Below, piece after piece: positions 1,739-20,229 of a stretch of DNA of 51,142 bases. The notes under the pieces are model-generated. The model made no database searches. It saw only the letters and a list, made by a program, of their open reading frames with translations, and was not told the origin of the DNA. Origin of the DNA: Deltaproteobacteria bacterium (GTDB taxonomy: Bacteria > Myxococcota > JACRCW01 > JAFGSX01); contig JAFGSX010000259.1 in NCBI GenBank assembly GCA_016934455.1, forward strand, positions 1 to 51,142, given 5' to 3'. The position numbers were made by a program, and so were the translations under genes. Position 1 is the first letter of the stretch, and the number at the start of each line of letters is the position of its first letter.

Positions 1739-1835
1739 GGTCCCCTCCCGATGAAAGGCAGATGGGCGAGATGACTCAAAGTGTAGCAGGCGACCCTTGG
1801 CGTGCCAGGAATTGTTGGCGGCGATTGGCCGCTGA

Positions 1836-2597: not shown

Positions 2598-3017
2598 CTA
2601 ATTTCCGCCGCCCGCCGGCCACAGCCCGATCGGCCCGACCGTGACGTCGCGGTCCTCCAGCGCCACCTCGGTGTAGTCGGGGGCATAGTCGGAGTGCGAC
2701 GCGATCAGCTTGTGGCAGCCGGGCAGCACGTACGCAGTCAGCGCGAACACGCCCTCGCCGTCGGTGTAGCTGTAGTAACCTCCGACCCGCACCTCGGCGC
2801 TGGCGATCGGCGCTCCGCTCTCGGCATCTACCACCACGCCATCGATCAGGTACTCGCAGTTGCCGCCGCCATAGGTCTGGTCGCAGGCGCCGCCGCCGGT
2901 CTCGATGCGGGAGCTCGAGTGCGACTCGATGACCATGCACCCCCAGAGGGAGCTGGCCAGTATGGCGACGGACCAGACTGCGATGGCTCGCATTGCCGGC
3001 TGCGGTGCGGTTGTCAT
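2598..3017 (-). CDS. Small lipoprotein with a carboxypeptidase-regulatory-like (CarboxypepD_reg) beta-sandwich
   Basis: GGAG-N8-ATG at 3017. The signal is MTTAPQPAMRAIAVWSVAILASSLWGC with a lipobox. YLIDGVVVDAESGAPIASAEVRVGG..TDGEGVF..GCHKLIASHSDY fits the family pattern. The stop is TAG at 2598-2600. This is the C-terminal part of track ORF 2598..3647. Confidence 0.7.
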   Translation of the reverse strand: MTTAPQPAMRAIAVWSVAILASSLWGCMVIESHSSSRIETGGGACDQTYGGGNCEYLIDGVVVDAESGAPIASAEVRVGGYYSYTDGEGVFALTAYVLPGCHKLIASHSDYAPDYTEVALEDRDVTVGPIGLWPAGGGN

Positions 3018-3091
3018 TTTGGGCTCCGCGATGATCAGGGTGGTCTGAACAAAAGCAAGAGGCACGCCAGAAACGCACCCTGCGTCTGACG

Positions 3092-3121
3092 ATAACATGC
3101 TGTTTTTATTGATGTTTACAA
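3092..3121 (-). promoter_or_regulatory. Weak sigma70-like promoter candidate in an AT-rich patch (TTGTAA-18-TGTTAT)
   Basis: It lies in the 200-nt gap between the pbpC stop (3220) and the lipoprotein start (3017). Each hexamer matches consensus at only 4/6 positions. Confidence 0.25.
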
Positions 3122-3219
3122 AATACGTCGCGCCTGCTCGAACCAGAGATCGGGCAGACCACCGAGAATCGCGACATGGGAGTCCGGATCTAGTGCTGCG
3201 AGGCAGTCGAGCGCGGCCG

Positions 3220-5607
3220 TCAATCGACCACTGTGACCGTGATCGGCTGGCTGCGCGCCGGCCGCTGCGCCATGGATGCCTGCACCACGTGGCGACCCGG
3301 CGTGAGCTGCCAGCGAAACTGGTGCGGGTAGCCGACCTGCGCCACCGGCACGCCGTCGACCAGCCAGACGATCGACTCGGCGCGCGGCCGCACCTGCGCC
3401 TCGAAGCGCAGCGTCGCGAACTCGACCGGGGTGTCCGGATCCCACAGGTAACGGCCGTTGTCCGGCGGGCTGACGATGCGCACCTGCGGCTCCTCGAACG
3501 GCGGCGGCCCGCACAGCGGGCTCGGCTCCCGGGGCGCCAGCTCGAGTCGCTGCTGCCGCGCCCAGACCTCGTAGCGCTCCGGCAGGTCGAGCAGCAGCCG
3601 CTCCTCGGCCAGATCGCGCGGGCAGTCGGCGCTGGCCAGCAGGCCATTGCGGCGATCGACGCGCACCCGCCGGTGAAAAGGGCACACTTTTACCGGCTCG
3701 CTGCCGGGTGCAAAGTGCTCGACGGCCGGGTGCGGGCAGTCCGGCCCGGCCAGCAGTCCCGAGAGCGAGCAGACGGTGGCGGCGACGTACTCCGGCGGCG
3801 GCGCGAACCGCTCTGCCACGGCGCGCCAGGGCTCGATCGCCGACGTCGCCAGGTCGAGCATCTCGTGCGCGGCCGCGGCCGCGCCCCTGGCCCCGGTGAT
3901 CCGGTTCATGCTGCTGCAGTCGTGGTTGCCGACCCAGACCACCACCAGCGCGCGGTCGCTGAAGGCGACCGCCCAGGCGTCCCGAAATCCCTGGCTGGTG
4001 CCGGTCTTGACCGCGGCCGCGTAGTCGTACTCGAGCGGGCCGCCGCGCCGGAAGCTGGGCGCGCGCGCCTCGTCGTCGGCCAGGATGTTGCGGATCTGCT
4101 GCGCCGCGCCCCGCTCCAGCAGCCGGCGCCGCGGGGCGACCGGCTCGTCGGCCAGCCAGCGCAGCGGCACGCTCTCGCCGCCGTTCGCGAGCATCAGGTA
4201 AACCGCGGCCAGCTCCTCGGCCGTCAGGTGCAGGTTGCCCAGCGCCATCCCCAGGCCGTAGGCGTCGGGCTGGTACGAGATGCCGCGCACGCCCGCGGCT
4301 TCGAGCAGGCTCAGCACGGGCTCGATGCCGACCGTCGACAGCAGGCGCAGCGCCGGGATGTTGCGCGAGTTACCCAGCGCCGGCCGCAGCAGCAGCGGCC
4401 CCATGAACCTGCCGCCGATGTTGCGCGGCAGGTAGGCGCGGCCCGCCTCGGCGACGAAGTCCATCGGCGTGTCCTCGAGCTCGCTGGCAGCGGTGAAGCC
4501 GCGCTCGAGCGCCAGCGCGTAGATGAACGGCTTGAGCGCCGAGCCGGGCGAGCGCTTGACCTTGCCGTAGTTGATGGCGCCGCGCTCGCTCTCGCCGAAG
4601 TAGTCGGCCGAGCCGACGTAGGCCAGGATGTCGCCGGCGGCGGTGTCGATAACGAGCCCCGCGGTGTTGCTGGCGTGCAGCCAGCGCAGCCGGCGCAGGT
4701 TGCGTTCGAGGATCTGCGCCACCTGCTGCTGCAGGTCCAGATCGAGCGTGGCGGTGGTCACCGCGTCGGGGCGGCCGCGCACCAGCTCCGACCAGTCGAG
4801 CACCGCGTGCAGCGCCTCCGGCCGGCGCGCCGGCCGCGGCACCAGCCGCAGATCGCTGGCCAGCGCCTGTTGCAGCTCATCGGCGCCAAGACGGCCGCGC
4901 TGGTGCAGACGGCGCAGGATGCGGTGCGCGCGCTGCAGGCCGCGCTGCTGGCTGGCGCCGTGGTGGGGGTTGAGGCGGCCCGGCGCCTGCGGCAGCCCCG
5001 CCAGGTAGGCGGCCTGCAACCACGACAGATCCTCGAGCGGCTTGTCGAAGTAGTAGCGCGCCGCGCGCGCCGCGCCGCGCACCCGGTTGCCGTAGGGCGC
5101 GATGGTCAGGTAGTGGCGCAGCACCCGATCGTGGCCGTGGCGCTGCACCAGGATCAGCGCCTCGAGCGACTCGCGCAGCTTGTTCCAGAGATGGCGCGCG
5201 CCCGGGGACTGCATGCGCGCCACCTGCATCGGGATCGTCGACCCGCCCGAGACCACGCGCAGGTGGGCCAGGTTCTGCCGCAGCGCCCGCCCGATCGCCA
5301 GCAGCGAGACCCCGCGGTGGCGATAGAAGCGGTGGTCCTCGGTCTCGACGGTGGCGATCGCGATCCGCTCGGGCAGCGCGTCCGGCAGCGGCCAGAAGCC
5401 GAGCAGCTCGCCGTCGCTGGGCACCTCGCCGAGGTAGCTGCCGCGGCGGTCGAGGATCAGCTTGGACGGCGGCGGCGCGATCAGCTCCGTGGTCAGGGTG
5501 GCGCCCAGGACGAGGATCGCCCCGGCGGCCAGCCCGATCGCGGCCAGAGCCGGCCAGCGCCGGTGCGCGCCGGGATCGCGCGCCCGATGGTTTTTACGGC
5601 CTAGCAT
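3220..5607 (-). CDS. pbpC: Penicillin-binding protein 1C (bifunctional glycosyltransferase/transpeptidase)
   Basis: The start is MLGRKNH.. followed by a TM segment. Glycosyltransferase motif: TEDHRFYRHRGVS. SxxK motif: GSALKP. The C-terminal BiPBP_C-like tail reads ..VRIVSPPDNGRYLW..LVDGVPV... ATG 5607 overlaps the upstream stop (ATGCTAG). Confidence 0.9.
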   Translation of the reverse strand: MLGRKNHRARDPGAHRRWPALAAIGLAAGAILVLGATLTTELIAPPPSKLILDRRGSYLGEVPSDGELLGFWPLPDALPERIAIATVETEDHRFYRHRGVSLLAIGRALRQNLAHLRVVSGGSTIPMQVARMQSPGARHLWNKLRESLEALILVQRHGHDRVLRHYLTIAPYGNRVRGAARAARYYFDKPLEDLSWLQAAYLAGLPQAPGRLNPHHGASQQRGLQRAHRILRRLHQRGRLGADELQQALASDLRLVPRPARRPEALHAVLDWSELVRGRPDAVTTATLDLDLQQQVAQILERNLRRLRWLHASNTAGLVIDTAAGDILAYVGSADYFGESERGAINYGKVKRSPGSALKPFIYALALERGFTAASELEDTPMDFVAEAGRAYLPRNIGGRFMGPLLLRPALGNSRNIPALRLLSTVGIEPVLSLLEAAGVRGISYQPDAYGLGMALGNLHLTAEELAAVYLMLANGGESVPLRWLADEPVAPRRRLLERGAAQQIRNILADDEARAPSFRRGGPLEYDYAAAVKTGTSQGFRDAWAVAFSDRALVVVWVGNHDCSSMNRITGARGAAAAAHEMLDLATSAIEPWRAVAERFAPPPEYVAATVCSLSGLLAGPDCPHPAVEHFAPGSEPVKVCPFHRRVRVDRRNGLLASADCPRDLAEERLLLDLPERYEVWARQQRLELAPREPSPLCGPPPFEEPQVRIVSPPDNGRYLWDPDTPVEFATLRFEAQVRPRAESIVWLVDGVPVAQVGYPHQFRWQLTPGRHVVQASMAQRPARSQPITVTVVD

Positions 5608-6587
5608 TCGCGGCACGGCACGCCACAACTGACCGGCTTGCACACGCCGAAACAGTCGCGGTGGCTTCTGACCTGGACGGAGCAATTTCCGGTGCAGCGG
5701 CATTCGAAAAAGCAGGGATCGCCGTAGCCGGAGACGCAGCTCGTGCAGGCGCCGCTCCAGCATTCGGCGTCCTCCCCGCACGACGTGCCGTCGTGCTCGA
5801 ATTCGTCCGTGCACTGGCCGTTGCTGCAACCGTAGACGTGGCAGGGTTCGCTGCCGCTGCAATCGCGGCACAGCGCGCCATTGACGCCGCAGGAGTGCAA
5901 CTGGGTCCCGGCCACGCAGCCGCCGTCGGCAGCGCGGCACGCCAGCGGGGCGCAGGTCGCGCAGGTCGGTGACTCACCGAGGCAGTTGTTCTGCGTGCAG
6001 TCCTGCTCCAGTTGGCGCGCGCCGCAACCGAAGCTGTCGACCTCGCAACTGTAGACGTCGCCGTCGTGGCAGTGGACGCCACTGCACTCGTCGACGGAAC
6101 AGACGCACTGCCCGTCCGGCGTGCACTGCGAGTTGGCGCCGCACACGCCGTCGACGCAGTCGCTCCACTGCACCAAGTCGATGCACACGCGGTGGCCGCA
6201 CTGCTCGCACGCCGGCGGAGCGGTGCCGCCGCTGCAGGCGCCGTGGCACGCGATCGTGGCGCCGCAGGAGCCGTCCTCGGCGCACGGCGCACCGAACCCG
6301 TCCACGCAGCCCGCGTCCACACGGGCAGCGTCCGCGCGGCCAGCGTCGATCGCGACGCAGATCCAATCGCGGCAACTCTCGCCCGCGGCACACGCGTCGT
6401 CGCTCTGGCACCGCGGCGCCTGGCACCTGCCGCGCACGCATCTCAGGCCGGGCGCGCAGGCCTCGTCCCCCTGGCACGGCAGCCCCTCGCCGCCTCCCAT
6501 CGCGACGCACATCTCGCATCCGGTCAAGGCGGCGAGCGCGGCCAGGGCGGCCAGGGCGGCCGCGGTTCGCGGATGGCGTCGCGGCAT
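5601..6587 (-). CDS. Cysteine-rich secreted lipoprotein (52 Cys in 328 aa by my count)
   Basis: GGTGGA-N4-ATG at 6587. The signal is MPRRHPRTAAALAALAALAALTGC. The remainder is C-x(2-8)-C repeats resembling myxobacterial Cys-rich repeats. The stop overlaps the pbpC start by 7 nt. Confidence 0.75.
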   Translation of the reverse strand: MPRRHPRTAAALAALAALAALTGCEMCVAMGGGEGLPCQGDEACAPGLRCVRGRCQAPRCQSDDACAAGESCRDWICVAIDAGRADAARVDAGCVDGFGAPCAEDGSCGATIACHGACSGGTAPPACEQCGHRVCIDLVQWSDCVDGVCGANSQCTPDGQCVCSVDECSGVHCHDGDVYSCEVDSFGCGARQLEQDCTQNNCLGESPTCATCAPLACRAADGGCVAGTQLHSCGVNGALCRDCSGSEPCHVYGCSNGQCTDEFEHDGTSCGEDAECWSGACTSCVSGYGDPCFFECRCTGNCSVQVRSHRDCFGVCKPVSCGVPCREC

Positions 6588-6679
6588 GGATCCACCGACA
6601 GCGTGAATTCCATCCAATGATAGCAGACGCGACGACGTGCTTCACCCCCGGCTGCCGCACCGGCGAATGCCTGCGCGCG

Positions 6680-7759
6680 TCAGGGCAGCGTGGCGCGGCA
6701 GCCGCCCGACCAGTTGCCGCTGCAGTCGTAGATGGACTGGCTCGTCGCCACCAGGCCGTCGGGCCAGCTTATGGACGCGGCGGTCCAGACGTGCCAGGGC
6801 GCCAGGTCCTGGATGTCGACGACCACCAGCTTGCCCCACAGGTTGATGATCACCCGGCCGTCCGAGTCGGTGCTGCCGCTGCTGTTCCAGTGCTCGACCA
6901 GCACCGTGTAGATCCCGTCCTGCGGGCGATCGAGCCAGATGTTCTCGGGGCCGTAGCTGTACAGCCAGTCGACGTCCTTGTGCGGATCGTCCGCGGAGTC
7001 GCCGACCACGCCCCAGTCCGGGGATGCGTGCACGCACGAGGTCCAGGTGCAGTCGCTGGCGTCGTCGTTGATCTGACCGCCCGGCCGGATCAGGTGCAGC
7101 TCCCAGTCGACGCCGATGGCGTCCCACACCAGCGTGATCCGCATGTCGGCGTCCACGCAGCTACTGGTGCTGACGCGCGTCACCAGCACGTAGCTGCAGG
7201 TGGCGTTGGACCAGATGCGCTTGACCAACGAGTCGCCGCAGAAGAGAGGCACCGTGACCGAATAGGAGCCGTCGCCGGCGGTCGGGATCTCGCCGCTGAT
7301 CTCCTCCTGGTTGCGGCCGCGCACGTAAAAGGTGCCGTTGCCGACCGCATTGTCGACGACTCCCGAGAAGGTGTACGAGGTCACCTCGCCCGCCTGGATG
7401 GTGGTCGTCGCCGGCTCGGTGTCCGGGCAGTTGCCGGTGCCGTCGGTGTACTCGCCGGGCTGCTGGTGGCCGGGCGCCGGATCGAGCTCGGGCTCGCGCT
7501 CGACGCTGCCGCGGTCCAGGCGCACCGCATCGCGGCCGCCGGCGTCGCTGCCGCGGTCGGCGCCACCCGCGTCGGTGCGCCCGTCGGCGGTCGCGGCGTC
7601 GCGCGCCGCATCGCCCGCCGCGTCTCCACCGCCGCTATCCGCGGCCCCGCCGTCGCCGCCCCCGTCTTGGGCCGGGCCGGCTCCGCAGTCGGCGCAGCCC
7701 GCCAGGGCGCAGATCGCGATCGCCGCCAGAAACCACACCGCTCTGCCTCCACGACGCAT
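6680..7759 (-). CDS. YfaP/DUF2135-like lipoprotein
   Basis: AGGGGG-N6-ATG at 7759. The signal is MRRGGRAVWFLAAIAICALAGC, followed by a D/G/A-rich linker. The core is MRITLVWDAIGVDWELHLIRPGG..DWLYSYGPENIWL..DGIYTVLVEHW. This matches my memory of the DUF2135 pattern (i.L.Wd..D.DLHv.eP.g ... GyGPE.y ... G.Y.v.V). Only the C-terminal 359 aa of track ORF 6680..11497 are real. Confidence 0.75.
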   Translation of the reverse strand: MRRGGRAVWFLAAIAICALAGCADCGAGPAQDGGGDGGAADSGGGDAAGDAARDAATADGRTDAGGADRGSDAGGRDAVRLDRGSVEREPELDPAPGHQQPGEYTDGTGNCPDTEPATTTIQAGEVTSYTFSGVVDNAVGNGTFYVRGRNQEEISGEIPTAGDGSYSVTVPLFCGDSLVKRIWSNATCSYVLVTRVSTSSCVDADMRITLVWDAIGVDWELHLIRPGGQINDDASDCTWTSCVHASPDWGVVGDSADDPHKDVDWLYSYGPENIWLDRPQDGIYTVLVEHWNSSGSTDSDGRVIINLWGKLVVVDIQDLAPWHVWTAASISWPDGLVATSQSIYDCSGNWSGGCRATLP

Positions 7760-7785
7760 GGTTACCCCCTGGGCGCAGGTCGCGC

Positions 7786-10700
7786 CTATTTCTCGTGCTC
7801 GCCGCTGACCACGATGCGCATGCCGTCGCCGCGGCCGCGCACCTCCTCGTGATACATCTGCTCGGCGTGGGCCGCCGGGTGCACGAATGAGCCTTCGACC
7901 GTGGCGCGGACCCTGAAGTGGAAGCTGTAGCTGCCGGCGGCCAGCTCGGTGAAGTAGTAGCGCACCTCGTGGTCCAGCCGCTGCACGTAGGTCGGCGCGA
8001 TCGAATCGGCCTCGCTCGGCCTGGCCTCGGCGCCCGAGGTCTGCAGCTCGGGATTCATCAGCTCGAGCCCGGCCGCAAACGGCACCACCAGCGCCACGTG
8101 GTAGCGCCGGGCGTCGACGGTCAGCCGGGTGTGCAGCTCGAGGATGTCGCCCACCGCCAGCCGCTCGACCGCCCCCTTCCGGTCCTCGAAGTGGGTCGGG
8201 GTCGAGCCGTCGGCGTACAGGTGGGTGGCGCCGCGCTGCACCAGGAACCCCTGCTTGAGCGCCTCGGCCTGGTCGCCCGGCGCCGCCGGCAGGTAGCTGT
8301 AGGCGACGCGGGCGTCGATCCGGGGCGCGCCCGACAGCTCGACCCGCAGCGCCTGCTCGCCGCGCACGTCGAGCGACGCCACCCGGTGCCGGTCGTCGAG
8401 GCTGAGCACGCCCGGGCTGCCCAGCGCCAGCCAGGCCTTGACCGGCTTGAGCTGCGCCTGCTCGAGGTAGGCAATCAGCGCCCGCAGCGCCGCCCGGTTC
8501 TCGTAGGTCGAGCCGAAGCCGTAATGGGCCGACGACTTGGCCAGCAGCGCCTCGAGCAGCGCGCTCAGCCGCTCGTCCCCGGGCGACAGCCGCACCAGGT
8601 TCTCGAGCACCGCCGCCAGCGTCGCGGTGCGGCTGCCCAGGTAGCTGCCGCTCCAGTCGCCGCGCCGCCAGCGCAGCCCCTGGACCACGCGCTTGCCCTT
8701 GAACAGCTTGAAGTCGACGCTCTGCCACAGCTCGTCGCGCAGCGCCCCGAGGTTGGTCTCGAACAGCCGGTTCTGCCGCAGCATGGCGGCGGTCAGATCG
8801 GACAGGCTGGACAGATCGAGGCCGCTGCGGCGATGGAACATGTCGATCAGGTAGTGCTCGTCGCCGCGCCCGATGAGCGCCAGGGCGCGGTGGGCGGCGG
8901 CCTGCTCGTTGTAGCGGTAGGCCGGGTCGAGCCGGCGGTAATCGCTGCGCAGGCTGCGCTGCAGCGCCTCGACGGCGCGGGTCTGCACCTTGTCGGGGGC
9001 GGTCAGCCCGAGCGAGCGGGCGCTGGCCATCAGCTCCACGGCGCGCGCGGTCATGCTGACGCTGCCGGCGCTGCCCGGCCAGGCCCCGAACAGGCCCTCG
9101 TCGTCCTGGTAGAGCGACAGCTCGTCGAGCAGCTTCTTGAGGTGGGACTTGACCTGCGCCGCGTAGTGGGCGCTCAGGCCGAACCGCCCGAGCGCCGCCC
9201 CCACCTCGGCCTCGGCCACCAGCGCCGAGATCTTCTGCTCCAGGCAGCCGTGCGGGTAGGCGGCCAGGTAATCGATGCCGGCCACCGCGGCCAGCATGCC
9301 GGGCACCGCCGAGATGGTGATGCGCTGCCGCGCCGTGCCCGGCCGCGGCGGCTCGGGGAACGGCTTGAGCGTCGTCACGCCGCCGTGGATGGTGTCGAAG
9401 TAGGCGTAGTGCTCGACCCGGCGGTCGGGCAGGATCGGCACCTCGACCTCGAAGGCGTCGCCGACGCCGTCGCTCAACCGGGTGACGTCGACGCGCACCT
9501 TGACCGAGGTCTGCGCAACGGCGTCCTGCGCCTTGACGCTGGCCTGCCACAGCCGGCTGGCGGCCTGGTTGAGCCGCAGCTCGACCCGCTGCTTGCCGGC
9601 CCGCACCTCGAGCGGGCCGGTCACCTTGAGCTCGACCGTGCCCGGCCCCTCGGCGCCCTCCACCAGCCGCGCCACGCCGCCAAGCCAGAAGCGGTCGCCC
9701 TGGCGCACGACGCGCGGAAGCTGCGGCTGCACCAGCACCGGCAGCCGCACCCGCAGCCGGCTGTGGAAATAACCGAAGCGGCGGAAACCGGCGGCCGCCA
9801 CCGCCCGCACCTGAAAGTTGGTCAGATCGTCGGACAGGGTGACCGGCACCACCAGCCTGCCCGACGGTCCCACCTCGAGCGTCGCCTGGTAGTAAGGCAC
9901 GGTCTCGAAGTTCTTGCGCACCACGCGCTTGCGCGAGATCCCCTCCCCCTCGGCGTCGGGTTCGCCGTCGCCACCCGGCTCCTCCTCCTGCTCGACCAGC
10001 CGGCCGACCACCCGGTTGCGGGTGTCGCGCACGCTGGTGCGCCTGGTGTTGGGCACGACAAAGCCGGTCAGCGGATCGAGCGGCTTCTCGGGCGCCAGCG
10101 ACAGCACCGCCTCGTCCACCAGCCACAGCGTGACCTCGCCGCCGAGCGGTTTGTTCTTCTCGTCCTGCAGGGTGACGATCAGATCGACCCTGGAGCCAGG
10201 TCGCGCCGTCTCCGGGTGCTGCACCTTTACCTGCACCGTGTTGGCGATCGGCTCCACCTCGAGGTCGAGGCTGGCGCCCAGCGTCTGCGGTCGGTAGCGG
10301 TCGTCGTTGCCCTTGCCGTCGCCCAGGCGGCCGCGCATCAGCACCACGTGCAGCGGCAGGTTGGGCACGTGCAGCGGCGAGATCTTGACCGGCACCACCG
10401 CCTTGCCGCCGCGGACCTCGGTCCAGCGGTACTCGTTGCGCTCGGGCTGCTCGACGATGACCAGCGCCTTGCCCGCCGCAAACGGGCTCTTGACCAGGAG
10501 CTGCGCGGTGTCGCCGGGCTGGTACTTCTTCTTGTCGGTCGCCAGCTCGAACACGCCCTGGCTCGCCTTCTCCCACGCCAGCGCTTCCTTGCCGCCGACG
10601 TAGAGATCGGCCGACAGCGTCTGCACCCGACCCAGCTTGTCGCGTCCGGTCAGCTCGACCACGTAGACGCCGGCCCGCGCGATGGCGAAGGTCGGCGTCA

Positions 10701-13611
10701 CCGGCCGCGCTTGCGTGGTGATCGCGATCTCCTTGAGCTTCTGGTCCTCCTGCTCGGTGATGTACTTGGCCTCGCCGGTGGCGAAGTTGGTCTCGCGCAG
10801 GTGGCTGTGCCAGATGCGGCGGTAGAGCCGGACCAGCACCTCCTGGCCCGCCAGCAGCTTGTTGTCGACGCCGACCGCGATGATCTCGGGCTTGAGCTCG
10901 AAAGCCTTCTCGGAGTAGCGCTGCAGCTTGAGCCCGAGCACGAACGGCGGCAGCGCGGTGGCCTCGTGGACGGCGCTGACCTGCTGGTTGTCGGCGCCGG
11001 TGACGGTGGCCTCGAAGCGGTAGATGCGCGGCGAGGCGTCGAGGTCGAGCGCCGGGTTGACCTCGATCTCGGCGCCGCCGTCGTCGTCGAGCGTGCCGCG
11101 CCGGCGCTGGGTCTCGGGAGCGCGCGCCAGGCCGGGCCGGGCGAACTGCGAGCTGGACGCGAACAGGTAGCCGGGGCGCCCCTCGGGCAAGTAGTGGTAG
11201 GGCCGCCGCGTCACCACCCAGTCGATCTGCTCGCCGGCGACCGAGCCGCCGGCGTAGTAGCGGGCCGCGGCCTTGACCTTGAACGGCTGGTCGAGCCGCA
11301 CTTTGGCGGCACCGGTGAGTTGCACCTCGAAGGTCGGGATGCGGTAGGCCTCGACCTGGAAGGTGCGCGTCGCCAGCGTCTGCGCCGGCTTGACGCTGAA
11401 CAGCTCGAGGGTGTAGCGGCCGCTGGCGACCTCGCCGCCCTCGTGCCACTCGGCCGCCAGGCCGCCGAGCCGGCTGAACTTGAACGGCAGCAGCCACTCC
11501 TCGCCGCCCGGGCCGCGCAGCTTGAGCCCGAAGTTGGTGGCCGGGCCGGCCTCGAGCAGGTCACCGCCGCGGCGCTGGCGCACGAAGCCCTTGACGTAGA
11601 CCTTCTCGCCCGGCCGGTAGATCGGCCGCTCCGTGAAGACGAACCCGAGCAGCCGGTCGTCGGGCGGCGGCGGCACCTTGTCGGTCAGCCAGCCCAGCCA
11701 GTGCGAACCCGGCGACCAGTGGTTGTTGGCGAACCGCGGCGGCGGATCGCGCGGGTCGAGCACCAGGATATCCTCGCCGCTCTGCACCGCGATGCGGAAC
11801 AGGCTGCGCCACCACTCGGGATTGGGCTTCAGGAGCGCCCGGCCCTCGCGGTCGGTGACGATGAGCTGGGCCTCCAGCGTCGGCGGCGCGCGCTTCTCGC
11901 CCGGCTTGGGCTCGGGTGGGTTCTTGACCATCTCGAGGGTGATCCGCGCATTGGCGACCGGCTCGGCGCGGTCGAGCGTGCGGACGTAGAAGACCGCCTG
12001 GTCGCGCTCCTCGACCACCGTCAGCGCCAGGTTGGTCACCTGCACCCGGGTGTAGACCCGCTGCGGCGACCCGGTCAGCCGGCGCAGGCCGACCAGGTAG
12101 GTGCCGGGCCGGCCCGCACCTACCGCACCGTCGAGCAGCGGTCCGATGTCGAGGCCGAAGTGGGTGGTGCCGCCCTTGTCGCCGAGCGGCAGGTCGACCA
12201 CCTGCGACACCAGCGGCGAGCCCAGCAGCCGCAGGTGGCGCACCAGGTCGCCCGACGAGATGTAGCCGATGTCGGCGGGAGTGCGCGGCGCCGGCTCCTC
12301 GCCCGGGAACGGCGGCGCCGTCTCCTCGTTGATCGCGAGCGGGCTGCTGGGAAACGGCCACAGCCCGAGGTGCAGCGGATCGACCCGGTAGATGCGCACG
12401 TCGACCCGCTTGTCGCCGTAGCCGACCACCGGCACCATGCGCGGCCCGCGCGCCTCGAGCACCGACTGCGCCTGCTCCCACTTGACGAAGGGCTTCTTCC
12501 AGCCGAGGTAGAAATAGACCTCGGGCGAGCCCGGATCGGCCAGCGGCCGGTCGCTGTCGTCGACGATCGGCGCGGCCGCGATCCGCATCCGGTACAGCAC
12601 GTCGGGCACGAACTTGCCGCGCAGCGCGACGCGCTGGCCGGAGACGGTGAAGTTGAGGTCGGGCACCGCCGGCTCGAGCCGCACCAGCTTCTTGAGCGCG
12701 GTCAGGCCGAGATCCTTGACACTGGCGGAGAACATGAGCTGCGGCCTGTCGCCGGTGTTGCCGCAGGCCAGCGCCAGCTCGCGCGGCACGCGGGCGGCGC
12801 CGACCAGCGGAACGCTGGAGCTGCCGCACGCCACCGAGACCAGCGAAAACGGCAGCCGCGTCGCCAGCCGGCCCTCCCACAGCACGCGCCCCTCGTCGCC
12901 GAGCGCCAGGCTGACGTTGACGTGAAGCTGCTTGCCCTCGGGCACCTCCTCGTCGAGGGTGATGGCGTAGGTCGCCGCGTCGCGGTGGCTGGCGCGCGGC
13001 AGCAGCGTCAGCGCGTAGCGATCGATGCTGCGGCGCGGGGCGTCGGCCAGGCCGGGCCGGTCGCGCACGTCGAGCTTGATCATCTTCTGCAGCGCGCCCT
13101 CGGGCAGCGCCTGGGGAAAGGTCAGCGTGAAGGTCCGAAACGGCTTGAGGTGATCGCTGCCCGAGGCTGGCGCCATGGCCGACGGCGGCGACATCATCGT
13201 CGTCAGCACCGCCCGGACGACCCCGGGAAGTCCCTGCCGGGGGACGCCGCGCGCGCTGACCGCGAACCGCGCCAGCGCCGGCCACGGCTCGGCCGGCCTG
13301 AACTGCATGGTCTGCCGGTCGAGCCACGACCAGGCGCCGGGCCAGGCCGGCTCGATCTGGAGCCACCTGGCGCCGTCGTCCGCCGGGCCGCGGCCGGGGC
13401 CGACGTTCCGGTTGAAATAGACCGTGATCGGGTCGTAGCCGCGCAAGAACTTCTCGGGCAGGATGATCAGCCCTCGCCGCGCCGGCGCCTGTCCCTCGTC
13501 GCCCGGCCGATAGGGCTCGTCGCCACCGGCCGCCAGGGCCGCCACCGCGCTGGCCATCGCCAGCGCCACCAGCGCCCCGGTCCACCGTGCGATGCGCAGT
13601 GACCTGCTCAT
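7786..13611 (-). CDS. Bacterial alpha-2-macroglobulin family protein, 1941 aa, with the thioester motif present
   Basis: The start is MSRSLRIARWTGALVALAMASAVAALAAGG, an SPI-type signal with no lipobox Cys. It has long MG-domain-like architecture. AAYPHGCLEQKIS carries the thioester CLEQ. The ATG overlaps the upstream stop as ATGA. Confidence 0.9.
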   Translation of the reverse strand: MSRSLRIARWTGALVALAMASAVAALAAGGDEPYRPGDEGQAPARRGLIILPEKFLRGYDPITVYFNRNVGPGRGPADDGARWLQIEPAWPGAWSWLDRQTMQFRPAEPWPALARFAVSARGVPRQGLPGVVRAVLTTMMSPPSAMAPASGSDHLKPFRTFTLTFPQALPEGALQKMIKLDVRDRPGLADAPRRSIDRYALTLLPRASHRDAATYAITLDEEVPEGKQLHVNVSLALGDEGRVLWEGRLATRLPFSLVSVACGSSSVPLVGAARVPRELALACGNTGDRPQLMFSASVKDLGLTALKKLVRLEPAVPDLNFTVSGQRVALRGKFVPDVLYRMRIAAAPIVDDSDRPLADPGSPEVYFYLGWKKPFVKWEQAQSVLEARGPRMVPVVGYGDKRVDVRIYRVDPLHLGLWPFPSSPLAINEETAPPFPGEEPAPRTPADIGYISSGDLVRHLRLLGSPLVSQVVDLPLGDKGGTTHFGLDIGPLLDGAVGAGRPGTYLVGLRRLTGSPQRVYTRVQVTNLALTVVEERDQAVFYVRTLDRAEPVANARITLEMVKNPPEPKPGEKRAPPTLEAQLIVTDREGRALLKPNPEWWRSLFRIAVQSGEDILVLDPRDPPPRFANNHWSPGSHWLGWLTDKVPPPPDDRLLGFVFTERPIYRPGEKVYVKGFVRQRRGGDLLEAGPATNFGLKLRGPGGEEWLLPFKFSRLGGLAAEWHEGGEVASGRYTLELFSVKPAQTLATRTFQVEAYRIPTFEVQLTGAAKVRLDQPFKVKAAARYYAGGSVAGEQIDWVVTRRPYHYLPEGRPGYLFASSSQFARPGLARAPETQRRRGTLDDDGGAEIEVNPALDLDASPRIYRFEATVTGADNQQVSAVHEATALPPFVLGLKLQRYSEKAFELKPEIIAVGVDNKLLAGQEVLVRLYRRIWHSHLRETNFATGEAKYITEQEDQKLKEIAITTQARPVTPTFAIARAGVYVVELTGRDKLGRVQTLSADLYVGGKEALAWEKASQGVFELATDKKKYQPGDTAQLLVKSPFAAGKALVIVEQPERNEYRWTEVRGGKAVVPVKISPLHVPNLPLHVVLMRGRLGDGKGNDDRYRPQTLGASLDLEVEPIANTVQVKVQHPETARPGSRVDLIVTLQDEKNKPLGGEVTLWLVDEAVLSLAPEKPLDPLTGFVVPNTRRTSVRDTRNRVVGRLVEQEEEPGGDGEPDAEGEGISRKRVVRKNFETVPYYQATLEVGPSGRLVVPVTLSDDLTNFQVRAVAAAGFRRFGYFHSRLRVRLPVLVQPQLPRVVRQGDRFWLGGVARLVEGAEGPGTVELKVTGPLEVRAGKQRVELRLNQAASRLWQASVKAQDAVAQTSVKVRVDVTRLSDGVGDAFEVEVPILPDRRVEHYAYFDTIHGGVTTLKPFPEPPRPGTARQRITISAVPGMLAAVAGIDYLAAYPHGCLEQKISALVAEAEVGAALGRFGLSAHYAAQVKSHLKKLLDELSLYQDDEGLFGAWPGSAGSVSMTARAVELMASARSLGLTAPDKVQTRAVEALQRSLRSDYRRLDPAYRYNEQAAAHRALALIGRGDEHYLIDMFHRRSGLDLSSLSDLTAAMLRQNRLFETNLGALRDELWQSVDFKLFKGKRVVQGLRWRRGDWSGSYLGSRTATLAAVLENLVRLSPGDERLSALLEALLAKSSAHYGFGSTYENRAALRALIAYLEQAQLKPVKAWLALGSPGVLSLDDRHRVASLDVRGEQALRVELSGAPRIDARVAYSYLPAAPGDQAEALKQGFLVQRGATHLYADGSTPTHFEDRKGAVERLAVGDILELHTRLTVDARRYHVALVVPFAAGLELMNPELQTSGAEARPSEADSIAPTYVQRLDHEVRYYFTELAAGSYSFHFRVRATVEGSFVHPAAHAEQMYHEEVRGRGDGMRIVVSGEHEK
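9235..9246 (-). other. CLEQ thioester motif codons of the A2M
   Basis: The reverse complement of ctgctccaggca is TGC CTG GAG CAG, in the A2M frame. Confidence 0.85.
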
Positions 13612-16600
13612 GGCGTCGCTCCGATCCGTTGGAAGAAGTCGCGCAGATACTCCTCGGGCACGTCCCGCTGGGAACCCTTGAGCCCGAGCAGCACCGGCCT
13701 GAAGCGCTGCGGCGCCAGCTCCGGTGGCGCGCGCACGGCCAGCAGGTAGTTGCCGGCGGGCAGCTCGAGGAACTGCTGACAACCATGGCCGAGCAGCCGG
13801 TGGTTGACGTCGAGGACAGTGCACTCGAGCCGGTCGGCGTCGACCTGCAGCCCGAGCCCGACTCTCCCCGCCGAGGTGGTGCGAAAGCTGAAGTAGCGCG
13901 CCGCGCCCGGCGCGATCCACTGCTCGGCGCCGACGCCGTCGGCCAGCGCCGGCACCGGTTCGGCGGTCCAGCTCACGCTGCCGGTGGCCGGCGCTCCGGC
14001 AAAGGGCCGCAGCATGACGCGGTAGCGGCCCGGCTCGAGCAGGCGCTGCAAGGTGCAGGCGCCGCCCAGACCGTCCAGCTTGAGCAGCCGCGTGCCGTCG
14101 AACAGGGCGCCGACCCCCGAGTCGGCGCGCACATCGAGCAGGCTGCGCTGCCTGATCTCGACCGTGAAATCGTTGACACCCGGCTTGATCGGGATCGCCC
14201 GCGCCTCGCCCAGCGGCGGCGGCAGCTTCCGCGGCAGCAGCTTGCTCCAGCGCGCCACGTTGGGCTGCCCGGGGGCGAACACCACCGCGCGCAGCGGCCC
14301 GGGCGGGTGGTTGATCACCACCTCGGCGCCCTGGCGCGCCGGGATGGCGCCGCGACAACCGCCGCTGCGGCTGCCGTCGTCGCGCGTGATGGTGCAGCGC
14401 ACCTCTCCGTCCACCTCGACCAGCCGCGCGCCGGCGGCCGGCGGCACCCGCAACCGGAGCTGGCCGTGCTGGAGCGGCAGCGCCTCGTACAGGCCGCGCA
14501 GCACCACCTGCGGCGGCGCCGCGTCGACCAGCAACAGCCGCGCCTGCAGCCGACTCCCGTCGCCGCCGCGCAGCAGCAGCTCGCCGCCTTGCCCGGCCAG
14601 CAGGCAGCGGCTCAACGCCTCGCCCGGCGGGCAAAAATCGATCGCGGCTCCGGCGCGGTCGAGTTGCACGGCCCAGGTCTGCGGCGGCAGCGTGGCCTCG
14701 AGCTGAAACGGCGCGTCCGGCAGCGCGAAGCGGCCGACCTGCCCGCTCCAGGTGGCCTCGCTCTTGCCCGGCGCCAGGGTCGCGGCGCGCTCGGGGATGA
14801 GAGCGGCGATGCGCGTCACCGTCGCCGGCAGCGGCTTGTCGGTGGCGGCCCACAGCCGCAGCAGCGACTCTCGGGTCGCGCCGCTGGCGGCAAAGCAGGC
14901 GTGCGGTTGCTGCTCGGCGACCCCGCCCTCGAGGCGACAGGCGGGAGCCGCCGCCTCGCCGAACGGCACCCGCACCGCGACCAGGTGCAGGCCGGGCTGG
15001 CCGCTGCGCTGACGCTCGATCAATCGGCGCTGGCCGAGCTGCTCGCGTACGGCCGGGTTGTCATCGGCGCTCAGCTCGATCACCATCTCGTCGAGGTCGA
15101 GCCTGAGCTCATCGCGCTGCCCCACCGTCGACACCACCAGCGCCCCCGCCTCCAGCGGCGCGCTCGGACCGCAGGGCGACAGCAGGCCGGGCTCGGCCGC
15201 CGGCCGGCACCAGACATTGGCGGCTGTGCGATAGCGGCCGGGCCGGGCGATGTCGACCCGACCGGCCCGACCCGCGGCCACGGTGCGGCCGTGCAGCTTG
15301 CCGATCGGTCGCGCCTGGTGGCTCGCGGTCAGCTCGGCCCATCTCCCCTTGGTCCAGAGCCGGACGTTGAAGGGCTGGCCGGCCGCGTGCACCAGTAACT
15401 GGCAATGGCGCACGCTGTCCTCGCGCTGCAGCACGGTGCCGTCGCCGCGCTCGAGGGCGCACGAGAAGGCGCTCTTGGACCTGAAGTGCAGCTCCTGCAC
15501 GGCGTCACCCTCGACCGCGGGCAACGGCACCACCAGCGCCTGGTTGGCGGTCTTGAGCTTGGCGCCGTCGACCAGCCGGTCCAGGCGCCGGTCCGGCGGC
15601 GCCACCACCTTGACCCGGGTCGAGCCGCTACGCTGGTTTTGCGCCTCGAACACCAGCCGGTAGTCGCCGGCCGGCAGCGGCTCGACCAGGCGGCAGTTCC
15701 AGTCCGCGCCGTAGTCGGCGCTCTCGGCCAGCAGCGCGCCGCCGGCAGCGAACAGCCGGCAGCGCACGTCGGTCTGGCCCCGGGTGGCCAGGTGCAGCAT
15801 GCCCGCGGCGGGCATCCGCACGGTGGCCGAGCCGGGCACCGGCAGCTCCTGCTGCAGCCCCGGCGCCAGCACCTCCGAGACCACTCGCAACCGGTACGCG
15901 ATGGCGACGTCGCCGCGGCAGTGCTCCGTCACCAGCCGGTATCTCCCCGCCTTGAGGTCGACGGCCAGGTTGTCGTCACCGGACGGCTTGCGCCGCGCCG
16001 CCGCCGGCGGCGGTTGGTAGGCCGGGTCCGGCGTCTCGCCGTCGGACAGCGCGCCATCTCCCTCGTCGTCGACGTCGCCGCCGGAGCCGTCTGGCATCTC
16101 CTCCTCGCCGTCGCCGCCTTCGTCGTAGCCTTCGTCCTCGCCACCCTCCTCGACCGGCATCTCGTCCGGCTCCTCCTCGTACTCCTGCTCGTACTCCTCC
16201 TCATCCTCCTCCGACCCAGCGGCCGGCGGCTCGGCCGGCGGCACCGTCTCGATCAGTTTTTCCCGGTCACCGTCGACGCGGTAGAGCCGCCCCTGCATGC
16301 CGTTGGTGAGAGCCACCCGGACCGGCAGGTCCGCGCTCAGCGTGAACTGGAACTCGTCGCGGCCGTCGCGGCCGAGCTCCGCGTCGTACCAGGTGTTGAC
16401 ATCGATGGCGTGGCGTCTCTTGTTGCCGCGCAACACCAGCGCCGGCCGCACCCGCCTGATCTCGGTGCGGCGCATGCTCTCGACCGTGAGCGGCAACTGC
16501 GACCAGCGGTAGCGGCCGCGAGCCAGCTCGTGGCTCGCCCGGCAAGGGGTGGGGACTGCCACCAGCGGCCAGCCGTCGCGGTCGTCGAGCCGGCACTGCA

Positions 16601-18974
16601 GTTGCACGCCCTGGCCCGATGTGTCCAGGGCGTAGCGGCCCTTCTGGCCCACGCTCAGCTCCTGCTGCACCAGATCGCCGGCCCGGGCCCGGAAAAAGAC
16701 CTCGCCGTCGGCGCGCACGGCCGGCCCCCGGGTCGCCGGCCGCCGGCTCAGCAGAACGGATGCGCGGCCCCTGCTCTGGCCGACCGTCTTGGCGGTGGCC
16801 AGGTAGCGGCCGGGCCGCAGGTAGCCGGCGAGCAGACAGTTGCGACCGCGGCCGCCGCTGCGGTCTCTAGCGAGCTGCGGCGCCACCGGCGTGCGCAGCC
16901 GGCACTCGGTCGCCAGCAGCCCCTCGGTCGTCAGGTGATAGAGGCCGGCCTCGGCCACGTCGAACAGCAGCGAGTGCGACTCGGAGCGGTCGAAATCGAG
17001 ATAGATCGGCTTGCCGACGCCGATGGCCGGGATCGGGGCGAACCTGGGCGCGTAGCTGGCCAGCACCGGCGCCGGAGGTCGCGGCCGGGGCCGGCCGACC
17101 ACGGCGGTGACCCCGTCGACGCTGCGGTTGGTCAGGATCAGCTCGTCGCCGCTGGCCAGCGCCGGCAGCGCGCAGACGCCGTCTCTGCCGGCCACCGGAG
17201 CCCCGCTGCGCAGCGCGCAGGTCAGCGCACCGACCCCGCGCACCAGCCCGGCGCGTCCCGCCGCCGACGGCAACCGGACCTCGCTCTGGCCGTCGACGGT
17301 GATCGGCAGCGGCGTGTCCAGCGTCAGCGGCAGCGGCCGCAGCACCAGGCCCCGCGCCTGCACCTCGCCCAGCCGGTTGGTGCGAATGCGGTAGCGAACG
17401 CCGGCGGCGAGCGCGACGTCGGAGAAGCGGCAACCGCTCTTGCCGGGCGTCGGCTGGATCTCGGGTGGCTGGTCCGATTTCTTGGTGTTGGTGAATCGAT
17501 CGATCACCGACTTGAGCAGGCCGCCCTCCCGGTCGATGACCAGCTTCTCGATGCCGGCTTGGCCGCCATAGAAATTGAGCTGGTACTGCCCCGGACCGAG
17601 CCGGAGCTTGAGGTCGCAGCGCTTGGCCTTGGGGTCGCTCTTGGTCAGCCGATGGTCGCCCTGGTACAGCTCGCATATCGCCCGGGTCTCGCCGGAGGAG
17701 GCGATGCGGTACTCGCCCGACTCGAGCAGCTCGAACCACAGCGTGTAGCCCTGCTCGCGCAGGTTGAACTGCCGCGAGAACGGGTGCTTGCCGTCGATGC
17801 GCAGCGCGTCGACGGCCATCCGCTGCCACTGCCGGTCGGGCTGCCGCCGCTCGAGCGCGCAGCCGAGCGGCGGCGCATCGAAATCGGTCGGCACGTCGTG
17901 CAGCCCGATCAGGTAGCGCCCGGCCGCCGGCGCCTGGAACTCGAGATCGCCCTGCGTCAGATACTCGCCGTCGGCGAGCAGCCCCTTGGGTCTGGGCGCC
18001 CACTGGAGCTGGCCGCCGGTGCCGGGCTCGCCGGTGACGACCAGCAGGTGGCGTTTCTTTCCGCTCGCCGAGGTGGCGCACGCCGGCGCCACCGCCTTGG
18101 CCGCGACGCTGCAGCTTCCGCCGCGGCCGCCGGTCGCGCCACCCGCCGAGTCCAGCTCCCAGAACTCGAGCGACGTCGCCGCGGCCGGCGCCTGGTCGAG
18201 GCTGAGCGTCGCGAAGTGGGGCCCGGCGCCGATCTCGATCCACAGCCTGCCCCACGCCGGCAGCGCGAAGTCCAGCGTGCGCTCGGCGGGCGCCAGCGCG
18301 AAACCGTTGGCGACGTAGAGCGCGTCGTCCTCGCTGCCGCGCGTCCACCGCTGCGGCCGGGCGCCGTAGGCCACCAGCAGGTAGTCGCCGGCCTCGAGCC
18401 TGCCGCGCAGGTGCCAGAGCCATATCGGTTGCCCCGGCCGCGGGGCCAACTGCTCGCTGGCGGCCTCGATCTCCTCGACCCACTGGCCGTTGCGCCACAG
18501 CCGCACCAGCCCGGCGCTGCGGCCGGCCACGATCAGATCGACGCGGCGCGGCTTGTCATTGTGAATCCAGTGCGAGACCTGCTGGCCGGGCGCGAGCCTC
18601 AGCTCGGCCGACTGCCGCTCGTCGAGCCGCACGCCGCCGGGGTTGAGCTCGGCAAACGGCGCGACCGCGAGCGCCACCTGGCCCTTGCCCTTGACCGGCG
18701 ATCGCAGGCGCAGTTTGTAGCTGCCGCTGTCGAGCAGCAGATCGAGCTCGCAGTTGCTGGTACCGGACGCGCCGCTGCTGTCGAACGGTCCGCGCAGGTG
18801 GTCGACGATCTCGCACGCCGTGCCCGAGTCGCTGCGGGCGCTCAGGTGATACATGCCGGCGGCGTCGATGGTGAGGATCGCCTCCTGCTGGCCCCGGGCC
18901 GGCACCGTCGCCGGTTTGACGGCAAGGCCGGGGACGGCACACAGCAGAGCGAGCGCAGCGACAGTGAGCGACAT
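13608..18974 (-). CDS. 1788-aa secreted multi-repeat protein (two-Cys, PPC-like beta-sandwich modules); function unknown
   Basis: GGGGAG-N5-ATG at 18974. The signal is MSLTVAALALLCAVPGLA. A repeated AG.Y.L ... C.L ... C.L..L..G.Y.L module recurs. An acidic low-complexity insert lies mid-protein. The stop is fused to the A2M start (ATGA). Confidence 0.85.
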   Translation of the reverse strand: MSLTVAALALLCAVPGLAVKPATVPARGQQEAILTIDAAGMYHLSARSDSGTACEIVDHLRGPFDSSGASGTSNCELDLLLDSGSYKLRLRSPVKGKGQVALAVAPFAELNPGGVRLDERQSAELRLAPGQQVSHWIHNDKPRRVDLIVAGRSAGLVRLWRNGQWVEEIEAASEQLAPRPGQPIWLWHLRGRLEAGDYLLVAYGARPQRWTRGSEDDALYVANGFALAPAERTLDFALPAWGRLWIEIGAGPHFATLSLDQAPAAATSLEFWELDSAGGATGGRGGSCSVAAKAVAPACATSASGKKRHLLVVTGEPGTGGQLQWAPRPKGLLADGEYLTQGDLEFQAPAAGRYLIGLHDVPTDFDAPPLGCALERRQPDRQWQRMAVDALRIDGKHPFSRQFNLREQGYTLWFELLESGEYRIASSGETRAICELYQGDHRLTKSDPKAKRCDLKLRLGPGQYQLNFYGGQAGIEKLVIDREGGLLKSVIDRFTNTKKSDQPPEIQPTPGKSGCRFSDVALAAGVRYRIRTNRLGEVQARGLVLRPLPLTLDTPLPITVDGQSEVRLPSAAGRAGLVRGVGALTCALRSGAPVAGRDGVCALPALASGDELILTNRSVDGVTAVVGRPRPRPPAPVLASYAPRFAPIPAIGVGKPIYLDFDRSESHSLLFDVAEAGLYHLTTEGLLATECRLRTPVAPQLARDRSGGRGRNCLLAGYLRPGRYLATAKTVGQSRGRASVLLSRRPATRGPAVRADGEVFFRARAGDLVQQELSVGQKGRYALDTSGQGVQLQCRLDDRDGWPLVAVPTPCRASHELARGRYRWSQLPLTVESMRRTEIRRVRPALVLRGNKRRHAIDVNTWYDAELGRDGRDEFQFTLSADLPVRVALTNGMQGRLYRVDGDREKLIETVPPAEPPAAGSEEDEEEYEQEYEEEPDEMPVEEGGEDEGYDEGGDGEEEMPDGSGGDVDDEGDGALSDGETPDPAYQPPPAAARRKPSGDDNLAVDLKAGRYRLVTEHCRGDVAIAYRLRVVSEVLAPGLQQELPVPGSATVRMPAAGMLHLATRGQTDVRCRLFAAGGALLAESADYGADWNCRLVEPLPAGDYRLVFEAQNQRSGSTRVKVVAPPDRRLDRLVDGAKLKTANQALVVPLPAVEGDAVQELHFRSKSAFSCALERGDGTVLQREDSVRHCQLLVHAAGQPFNVRLWTKGRWAELTASHQARPIGKLHGRTVAAGRAGRVDIARPGRYRTAANVWCRPAAEPGLLSPCGPSAPLEAGALVVSTVGQRDELRLDLDEMVIELSADDNPAVREQLGQRRLIERQRSGQPGLHLVAVRVPFGEAAAPACRLEGGVAEQQPHACFAASGATRESLLRLWAATDKPLPATVTRIAALIPERAATLAPGKSEATWSGQVGRFALPDAPFQLEATLPPQTWAVQLDRAGAAIDFCPPGEALSRCLLAGQGGELLLRGGDGSRLQARLLLVDAAPPQVVLRGLYEALPLQHGQLRLRVPPAAGARLVEVDGEVRCTITRDDGSRSGGCRGAIPARQGAEVVINHPPGPLRAVVFAPGQPNVARWSKLLPRKLPPPLGEARAIPIKPGVNDFTVEIRQRSLLDVRADSGVGALFDGTRLLKLDGLGGACTLQRLLEPGRYRVMLRPFAGAPATGSVSWTAEPVPALADGVGAEQWIAPGAARYFSFRTTSAGRVGLGLQVDADRLECTVLDVNHRLLGHGCQQFLELPAGNYLLAVRAPPELAPQRFRPVLLGLKGSQRDVPEEYLRDFFQRIGATP

Positions 18975-20054: not shown

Positions 20055-20229
20055 CCCATGAATCGGCATGGGGCGAGAGACTAGCGCGCAAGCGGGGTGC
20101 AATGAAAGTGCGATCCGTGATCGCGGGGCCGCCTCGCGCTACTCCCAGCGCGCGTACTCGAGCTGGCTGTTCAACCGCCGCCAGGCGATGTGCCAACGGA
20201 TGAGCGCCTTCGGGACCAGCGCGGACGGT

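Follow-up and report, generated by a model that had tools for sequence, protein, structure and literature searches.

A giant hypothetical protein family precedes anchor-less thioester alpha-2-macroglobulins across phyla: analysis of a putatively elaborated cassette in a Deltaproteobacteria bacterium

This study investigated a six-gene locus that surrounds a thioester alpha-2-macroglobulin (A2M) gene on contig JAFGSX010000259.1, a 51,142-bp stretch (hereafter the window, always at its full length) from a metagenome-assembled genome (MAG) whose label is Deltaproteobacteria bacterium and whose locus tags have the form JXR83_*. The six genes, all on the minus strand, encode in order a giant protein, the A2M, a YfaP-like lipoprotein (g3), a Cys-rich lipoprotein, the penicillin-binding protein (PBP) PbpC, and a 139-aa CarboxypepD_reg-like lipoprotein (Table 1). 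Two gene contexts are on record for bacterial A2Ms: Type I, in which the A2M accompanies PBP1c, and Type II, in which it accompanies Mag/Yfa accessory proteins (PMC5764988, PMC3328433). Our results revealed that the conserved unit is the giant gene followed by the A2M gene and usually then by pbpC, and that no other partner of this A2M class is as well conserved across phyla as the giant. The g3, Cys-rich, and 139-aa genes, in contrast, are variable and were added recently within a single small clade. We lean, with modest confidence, towards reading the locus as a local elaboration of a three-gene envelope cassette that is itself widespread and in which the giant would be a stoichiometric, non-catalytic periplasmic partner of the A2M. 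The notable feature of the locus is this family of giant partners; the merger of the two A2M contexts, highlighted in an earlier sequence-only reading of the same DNA, is a narrow lineage-specific embellishment.

The A2M gene follows the giant gene across phyla

The sequence-only reading had treated the 1788-aa giant as an unclassified partner specific to this locus. Our searches instead placed it in a widespread family that lies beside A2M genes across phyla. When the N-terminal half of the giant was compared by phmmer with all 1.84 billion cluster representatives (clusters at 50% identity), the number of matching proteins was 845 at E ≤ 1e-3, 700 at E ≤ 1e-10, and 460 at E ≤ 1e-30. The homologs, all annotated as "hypothetical", were collinear with the window protein over both of its halves and over the full length, and the length of the family was strikingly conserved, mostly 1650–1870 aa and up to 2230–2500 aa.

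A giant homolog together with downstream DNA was available at 28 independent loci, and the A2M gene was the next gene in 26 of them. The giant-A2M loci came from at least three phyla and included Myxococcota, Acidobacteriota, Gammaproteobacteria, and Alphaproteobacteria. The triad of giant, A2M, and pbpC genes was present in Archangium gephyra, Wenzhouxiangella sp. AB-CW3 (Gammaproteobacteria), and Thermoanaerobaculum (Acidobacteriota), as well as in one 3.86-Mb genome and one 720-kb contig; in Telmatospirillum (Alphaproteobacteria), the giant and A2M genes were followed by the end of the contig. A metagenome scan with the closer giant alignment yielded loci of the Myxococcota type, in which the A2M gene was directly downstream of the giant gene in 17 of 17 and pbpC came next wherever the contig extended that far. 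The pbpC gene immediately followed the A2M gene in 16 giant loci. The stop codon of the giant gene and the start codon of the A2M gene shared a 4-nt ATGA or GTGA overlap at no fewer than 17 loci from several phyla, and the genes upstream of the giant were never conserved among the loci examined.

The sole exceptions to giant-A2M adjacency were L079:10001-17992 and L084:10001-17991, where LysM and DUF3108-like genes precede the giant gene. At a further locus (L085:10001-22371), the A2M has 1982 aa, and the place of pbpC after it is taken by a 425-aa gene that has no annotation.

Sequence and predicted structure of the cassette proteins

The giant protein carried a signal peptide, as did its family, and contained 30 Cys residues arranged as 15 close pairs. 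The paired cysteines and the family-wide signal peptides point to an oxidising extracytoplasmic location. The protein had no match in Pfam or NCBIfam even at E ≤ 10 and none in PADLOC, and a profile of its family detected nothing meaningful among the PDB sequences. An acidic low-complexity linker divides the giant into an N-terminal half (residues 1–913) and a C-terminal half (residues 1005–1788), which we modelled separately with AlphaFold2 (AF2) from a 44-sequence alignment. Both models were confident and all-beta, with a predicted local distance difference test (pLDDT) score of 87.5 and a predicted template modelling (pTM) score of 0.80 for the N-terminal half, and values of 87.4 and 0.57 for the C-terminal half. 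These models suggest that the giant consists of approximately 15 beta-sandwich domains in a fixed collinear architecture.

A Foldseek comparison of the models with the PDB revealed no enzyme fold and returned generic sandwich arrays only, namely the collagen-binding domain (CBD) of ColG, CUB arrays, HA70, and the SID1 ectodomain. A module of the giant matched the ColG CBD structure 1nqj with TMt 0.74, a root-mean-square deviation of 2.9 Å, and 22% identity; the whole-chain template modelling (TM) score was approximately 0.1. Comparison of sliding windows by using hhalign showed that a PPC/collagen-binding-domain-like module of about 85 aa recurs at least seven times within the giant, at residues ~21–110, 390–480, 650–735, 750–826, 1047–1120, 1591–1677, and 1676–1748. 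The PPC domain itself (PF04151) was matched in three distant giant homologs, with no Pfam match in the window protein.

Other origins of the giant were rejected. A fused or diverged YfaQ, YfaA, or YfaP was ruled out by hhalign (probability <1%), and the same tool detected no homology between the giant and g3. A diverged A2M paralog was also rejected because the Foldseek matches to C5, A2ML1, and ECAM (the Escherichia coli A2M) were weak (probability 0.1–0.5; TM 0.05–0.09) and reflected generic sandwich-array similarity.

Two further features were noted in the giant family. An N-terminal LprI/DUF1311 domain (PF07007) was present in 12 of 119 giant homologs (P0193, P0194, P0203, P0206, P0211, P0213, P0217, P0227, P0228, P0232, P0235, and P0237; L057:10001-15595) and absent from the window protein; this domain was first reported in a mycobacterial lipoprotein that confers lysozyme resistance (PMC7933661). 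The sole confident helix in the C-terminal half was a conserved C-terminal segment, VPEEYLRDFFQRIG (residues ~1760–1788; window 13608-13700), which has the family consensus GPPxEVxR...G..P and lies just ahead of the overlap with the A2M start. As modelled, this helix could serve as a docking peptide.

The A2M of the window matched the Pfam families bMG10 (1.4e-27), A2M_BRD (4.7e-20), MG2 (1.9e-13), and A2M (7.1e-08), with further weak matches to TED and bMG3/5. Its CLEQ motif lined up with YPYGCLEQ of ECAM, and GC[LT]EQ was kept in all 22 giant-linked A2Ms that yielded an alignment. No Cys was read in the first 40 residues, and the A2M therefore has a signal of the signal peptidase I (SPI) type and no lipobox. 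These results agree with the earlier description of one thioester A2M with an SPI-type signal. Every giant-linked relative examined had the same type of signal, and the mature N-terminus was conserved among them. The giant-linked A2Ms were 1893–2067 aa long. Relative to ECAM, the window A2M was 22% identical over 948 aa (E 4e-16) and carried approximately 270 additional N-terminal residues; in a phmmer search of the PDB sequences, its best match, YfhM (4ziu), was barely detected (E 0.0017). The segment EEEPGGDGEPDAEGEGISRK, which aligned with the ECAM segment GRLAALRFGGDGDELKRGGKPP, is the probable bait region as judged from this alignment.

PbpC matched the Pfam families Transgly (2.6e-41), Transpeptidase, and BiPBP_C. 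TIGR02073 was by far its best-scoring NCBIfam model (490.5 bits; cutoff 494.2). The motifs EDHRFYRHRG (90), SALK (356), SRN (414), and KTG (534) revealed an intact GT51 and SxxK/SxN/KTG set, and the protein is a PBP1C-type class A PBP with a transmembrane anchor. The domains and catalytic motifs bear out the PbpC assignment made from the DNA alone.

The giant as a candidate partner of anchor-less A2Ms

The proposed cassette comprises a giant secreted all-beta protein, a long anchor-less thioester A2M, and PbpC, all of which would be exported to the periplasm. There, the A2M would covalently trap endopeptidases that breach the outer membrane, through cleavage of its bait region and reaction of its thioester, and PbpC would repair the peptidoglycan. 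The giant, made in a fixed ratio with the A2M, would bind it and, without catalytic activity of its own, would serve as a scaffold or cage partner by which the trap is stabilised, positioned, or completed. In Pseudomonas aeruginosa, the COG4676 proteins MagA and MagF bind the A2M MagD at 1:1, and MagB is required for MagD stability in Pseudomonas (PMC3735191, PMC5764988). By analogy, the giant may stand in for the lipid anchor of ECAM in the way that MagB, MagA, and MagF stabilise the anchor-less MagD. On the same analogy with MagA and MagF, g3 could be an extra A2M-binding accessory. The Cys-rich and 139-aa lipoproteins would be dispensable add-ons. A stronger version, which we put forward tentatively, is that the giant is an obligate structural subunit of a widespread class of anchor-less thioester A2Ms, forming a two-protein trap in which it completes or positions the cage or senses the breach.

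Several points weigh against the partnership proposed here. The physical association of the giant with the A2M is one that we infer from sequence, and the giant has no membrane anchor of its own and thus cannot simply replace a lipobox. Of the approximately 700 giant-family clusters, a small subset selected by pattern was sampled. In L079 and L084, which belong to one clade of ~50% GC, the giant gene is followed by lpxB-NUDIX-lpxK with no adjacent A2M gene. L085 has the giant and A2M genes without pbpC, which makes the linkage of the giant to the A2M look tighter than the classical linkage of A2M to pbpC. In 50 of 50 other genomes, members of the g3 family are not linked to A2M, and the role of g3 could be unrelated to A2M. 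We found no mention of a third conserved A2M partner in literature that did not include Budd et al. 2004, and that paper may already have noted the gene upstream of A2M; PMC3328433, PMC3735191, and PMC5764988 describe the two classical contexts only.

The exception clade also bears on a different explanation, namely that the giant acts independently of the A2M as a structural or adhesive protein of the periplasm or surface and is merely co-regulated with it in a general envelope-stress regulon. A giant gene next to the lipid A genes lpxB and lpxK, with no A2M gene, would fit this explanation, and so would domains that resemble binding modules (collagen-binding domain, CUB) and no known A2M partner, together with the lack of homology to YfaQ, YfaA, and YfaP. 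Nevertheless, the giant adjoins the A2M at all but two of the 28 loci with conserved 4-nt overlaps, more tightly than the A2M adjoins pbpC, and its upstream neighbours are never conserved. We consider independent action improbable.

The linkage points to a third, phylogenetically broad A2M arrangement, in which an anchor-less thioester A2M is nearly always preceded by, and translationally coupled to, an unannotated giant of about 1750 aa. If the two proteins form a complex, the complex would account for the stabilising and positioning of anchor-less Type I A2Ms, would assign a function to the many members of the giant family now annotated as "hypothetical", and would offer a concrete, testable partner in cultured Archangium, Hyalangium, and Wenzhouxiangella. 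If the two-protein trap is correct, what many environmental bacteria possess as a "Type I A2M-PBP1c" system would be a machine of three components, the largest of which has never received a name.

Gene layout and local additions in the window

The window has a GC content of approximately 70%; long spurious open reading frames (ORFs) are therefore frequent, and in view of this risk gene calls were kept only when backed by a homolog or a hidden Markov model (HMM). The coordinates of the features are given in Table 1. The positions of both overlaps, the 26-nt gap, and the CLEQ motif reported in the sequence-only reading were all exact on the minus strand. The most likely start of the sixth gene is at 3017 instead of 3647. 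A tRNA scan and an Rfam scan of the window returned no matches.

Table 1. Positions of the cassette genes and associated features in the 51,142-bp window
Feature	Position	Strand	Remarks
FkbM-type methyltransferase gene	19080-20102	minus	Directly upstream of giant
Giant ORF	18974..13608	minus	1788 aa; first gene of conserved cassette
Acidic low-complexity linker in giant	15963..16232	minus	Residues ~915-1004; homolog alignments break here
ATGA overlap, giant stop/A2M start	13608-13611	minus	Read from sequence
A2M	13611..7786	minus	1941 aa
Probable bait region EEEPGGDGEPDAEGEGISRK	9922..9999	minus	Residues ~1205-1230, between A2M_BRD and A2M domains
Thioester motif CLEQ	9235-9246	minus	A2M residues 1456-1459
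g3 (YfaP-like lipoprotein)	7759..6680	minus	359 aa; lipobox LAGC read from sequence
Cys-rich lipoprotein ORF	6587..5601	minus	Best start 6587; 328 aa, 52 Cys, lipobox LTGC
ATGCTAG overlap, Cys-rich stop/pbpC start	5601-5607	minus	Read from sequence
pbpC	5607..3220	minus	795 aa
Weak terminator-like hairpin between pbpC and 139-aa gene	3080-3060	minus	Consensus scan only
CarboxypepD_reg-like lipoprotein	3017..2598	minus	139 aa; lipobox LWGC

Translational coupling had been claimed for all six genes. Three of the five junctions were tight and agree with this claim: the two overlaps and the 26-nt gap between the A2M stop codon and the g3 ATG (7759). The claim did not hold at the other two junctions, where gaps of 92 nt (g3 to the Cys-rich gene) and 202 nt (pbpC to the 139-aa gene) were found. 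The latter gap contains an AT-rich stretch, and the 139-aa gene is probably a separate transcription unit.

The description of g3 as a YfaP/DUF2135-like lipoprotein was partly upheld. The profile-HMM check came out against DUF2135 membership: g3 had no match in Pfam, PF09906 included, or in NCBIfam even at E ≤ 10, and none in PADLOC, and PF09906 matched 5 of 30 family members, weakly (best E 0.0042). A profile of the g3 family found nothing meaningful among the PDB sequences. At the level of profile-profile comparison the homology holds, because hhalign aligned a 30-sequence profile of the family with E. coli YfaP over 148 columns (94.7% probability, E 6.2e-08), spanning the beta-sandwich and the core R-x-T-L-x-W-D...D-L-D-L-H...G-Y-G-P-E...G-x-Y. 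A tblastn search of the window with E. coli YfaP detected g3 alone (E 2e-4). The family is large, and some of its members are named YfaP family or DUF2135 (COG4676) by NCBI and JGI. g3 itself comprises a D/G/A-rich linker, a beta-sandwich, and a DUF2135-like core with a Cys-containing insert. As judged from the profile comparison, g3 is a distant homolog of YfaP that falls outside DUF2135 as Pfam defines it. E. coli YfaQ, YfaT, and YfaA had no tblastn matches in the window, and HMM and hhalign searches agreed with the earlier statement that none of the three is encoded there.

We analyzed the neighbourhoods of g3 homologs in one genome per species, which gave 50 loci, mostly from Myxococcota with a few from Acidobacteriota and Actinomycetota. 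In tblastn searches with the six window proteins, for which the positive controls worked, homologs of the A2M, giant, pbpC, Cys-rich, and 139-aa genes were found within 10 kb of g3 in none of the 50 genomes, apart from one weak MG-like match in L024. Clustering of all ORFs revealed no conserved g3 neighbour among the 50 loci, and the family is therefore normally a stand-alone gene. These distributions indicate that g3 between A2M and pbpC is a lineage-specific insertion confined to the small clade of the window. The proposed merger of both A2M contexts thus stands in that g3 and pbpC both accompany the A2M and falls short in that it concerns a very narrow clade and recurs in none of the 50 other g3 genomes. 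The local insertion of a YfaP-like gene shows that an accessory gene of one A2M type can be recruited to the other.

The match in L024 (L024:47-1378; 25% identity, E 4e-4) is weak and MG2/bait-region-like and lies 8.6 kb upstream of a stand-alone g3 homolog, the sole hint of an A2M-like gene near g3 beyond the clade of the window.

Contigs of one close relative (L051/L052/L053) carry the genes in the order of the window, that is, giant, A2M, g3, Cys-rich, pbpC, and 139-aa, whereas a sister contig (L054) has giant, A2M, g3, and pbpC without the Cys-rich and 139-aa genes. The co-occurrence of the six genes in related genomes, which the sequence-only reading had proposed to check, was thus seen in that relative and not in L054; the Cys-rich and 139-aa genes are present in part of the clade only. 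The g3 orthologs in these contigs were 76–77% identical to that of the window. Between the window and L051, identities were 71% for the giant, 87% for the A2M, 81% for PbpC, and 64% for the 139-aa protein, and the Cys-rich proteins were 37% identical in the central part only.

The Cys-rich protein has 52 Cys, as had been reported, in 328 aa and the lipobox LTGC. It matched nothing in Pfam or NCBIfam even at E ≤ 10 and nothing in PADLOC, and the database search for homologs returned one protein only, a paralog encoded on another contig of the MAG (P0240, JXR83_21455; 404 aa, 52% identity over 29% of the query). This finding suggests that the Cys-rich proteins are a small, fast-evolving, genome-specific family; on the available comparisons, the Cys-rich protein is a fast-evolving orphan and its gene a variable accessory. 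The CarboxypepD_reg assignment of the 139-aa protein was confirmed by PF13620 (33.7 bits; cutoff 32.3) over residues 58–126.

These comparisons bear on two other explanations of the locus. According to the first, all six genes make up one integrated operon and complex, a fusion of the yfhM-pbpC and yfaS-type systems to which the three lipoproteins belong as obligate new subunits. Conserved order and orientation in L051/L052/L053, the three tight junctions, the homology of g3 to YfaP, and the binding of A2M by YfaP-family proteins in Pseudomonas (PMC5764988) are consistent with such a complex. It is distinctly unlikely in view of the two genes missing from L054, the divergence of the Cys-rich protein among relatives whose neighbouring genes are 71–87% identical, the 202-nt gap and hairpin ahead of the 139-aa gene, the g3 homologs unlinked to A2M in every one of the 50 genomes, and the lack of YfaQ, YfaT, and YfaA in the window.

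According to the second explanation, g3 and the Cys-rich gene are neutral insertion passengers with no role in A2M function. The retention of g3 in all three clade members at 76–77% identity and 26 nt after the A2M gene, as well as its homology to the A2M-binding MagA and MagF (PMC5764988), argues for a role. In favour of passengers, the g3 family is normally stand-alone and without conserved neighbours; the Cys-rich paralog elsewhere in the same MAG and the other insertions and deletions relative to the sister contig (an FkbM insertion upstream and the loss of synteny downstream) point in the same direction. We regard neutral passengers as somewhat unlikely, and we retain the reading of a three-gene cassette with local additions.

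Sequences flanking the cassette

The FkbM gene is an insertion of approximately 1.25 kb relative to the sister contig L059. The ADP-ribosylglycohydrolase gene beyond it (window 20230-21237) is conserved and in L059 lies about 85 nt from the giant gene. On the other side, synteny with L051 stops directly after the 139-aa gene. The segment at window 10-2376 (minus strand), which has a lower GC content (62.6%) and no synteny with L051, is one long ORF in which an AAA_14 ATPase fragment (residues 2–123) is combined with DUF4382, Glucodextran_B, Big_7, and TIG domains. This ORF probably represents two genes or a lipoprotein together with a remnant. A gene for an AAA_14 + DUF4143 ATPase is located at window 22592-23821 (plus strand), and there is a second AAA_14 fragment across the cassette from it (window ~2000-2376). 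The GC content drops locally to 58.6% at window 40001-42000, and the AT skew is strongly negative at 38001-40000 (-0.17) and 48001-50000 (-0.22).

Comparison with known systems

Single modules of the giant superpose on ColG CBD 1nqj and in this respect resemble the sandwich arrays of PPC, ColG s3 CBD, and CUB proteins. In contrast to those arrays, the giant has no attached protease or enzyme and comprises about 15 predicted domains in a fixed, length-conserved order. LprI/DUF1311 proteins share with the giant family the domain with which about 10% of its members start and a theme of periplasmic wall protection (PMC7933661); the window giant lacks the domain, and the link is circumstantial.

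With the Type I systems (E. coli yfhM/ECAM-pbpC; Salmonella Sa-A2M), the locus shares the MG domains, the bait-region domain, the TED with CxEQ, and bMG10, the position of pbpC downstream of the A2M gene in the same orientation, and, presumably, the logic of a periplasmic protease trap coupled to wall repair (PMC3328433, PMC5764988). E. coli yfhM-pbpC encodes a lipobox A2M of 1653 aa and has no upstream giant gene (also PMC3328433), whereas a giant gene is always ahead of the A2M gene in the arrangement described here. The A2M is just 22% identical to ECAM, has about 270–400 extra N-terminal residues, and has a signal peptide instead of the inner-membrane-lipoprotein lipobox of ECAM and Sa-A2M; in the window, two lipoprotein genes separate it from pbpC.

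The Type II systems (P. aeruginosa magABCDEF; E. coli yfaP-yfaQ-yfaS-yfaT-yfaA) differ in that their A2M (MagD/YfaS) has no thioester, which the window A2M keeps, and in that the mag operons have no counterpart of the giant. Homologs of YfaQ/MagB, YfaT/MagC, and YfaA/MagE are not encoded in the window, and its YfaP-like protein, with a Cys-rich insert, is too divergent for Pfam DUF2135. Nevertheless, the two arrangements share a COG4676/YfaP-like protein and an anchor-less A2M that is encoded together with accessory envelope proteins. By analogy, this similarity suggests that an anchor-less A2M may need partners in Type II systems and in the window alike (PMC3735191, PMC5764988).

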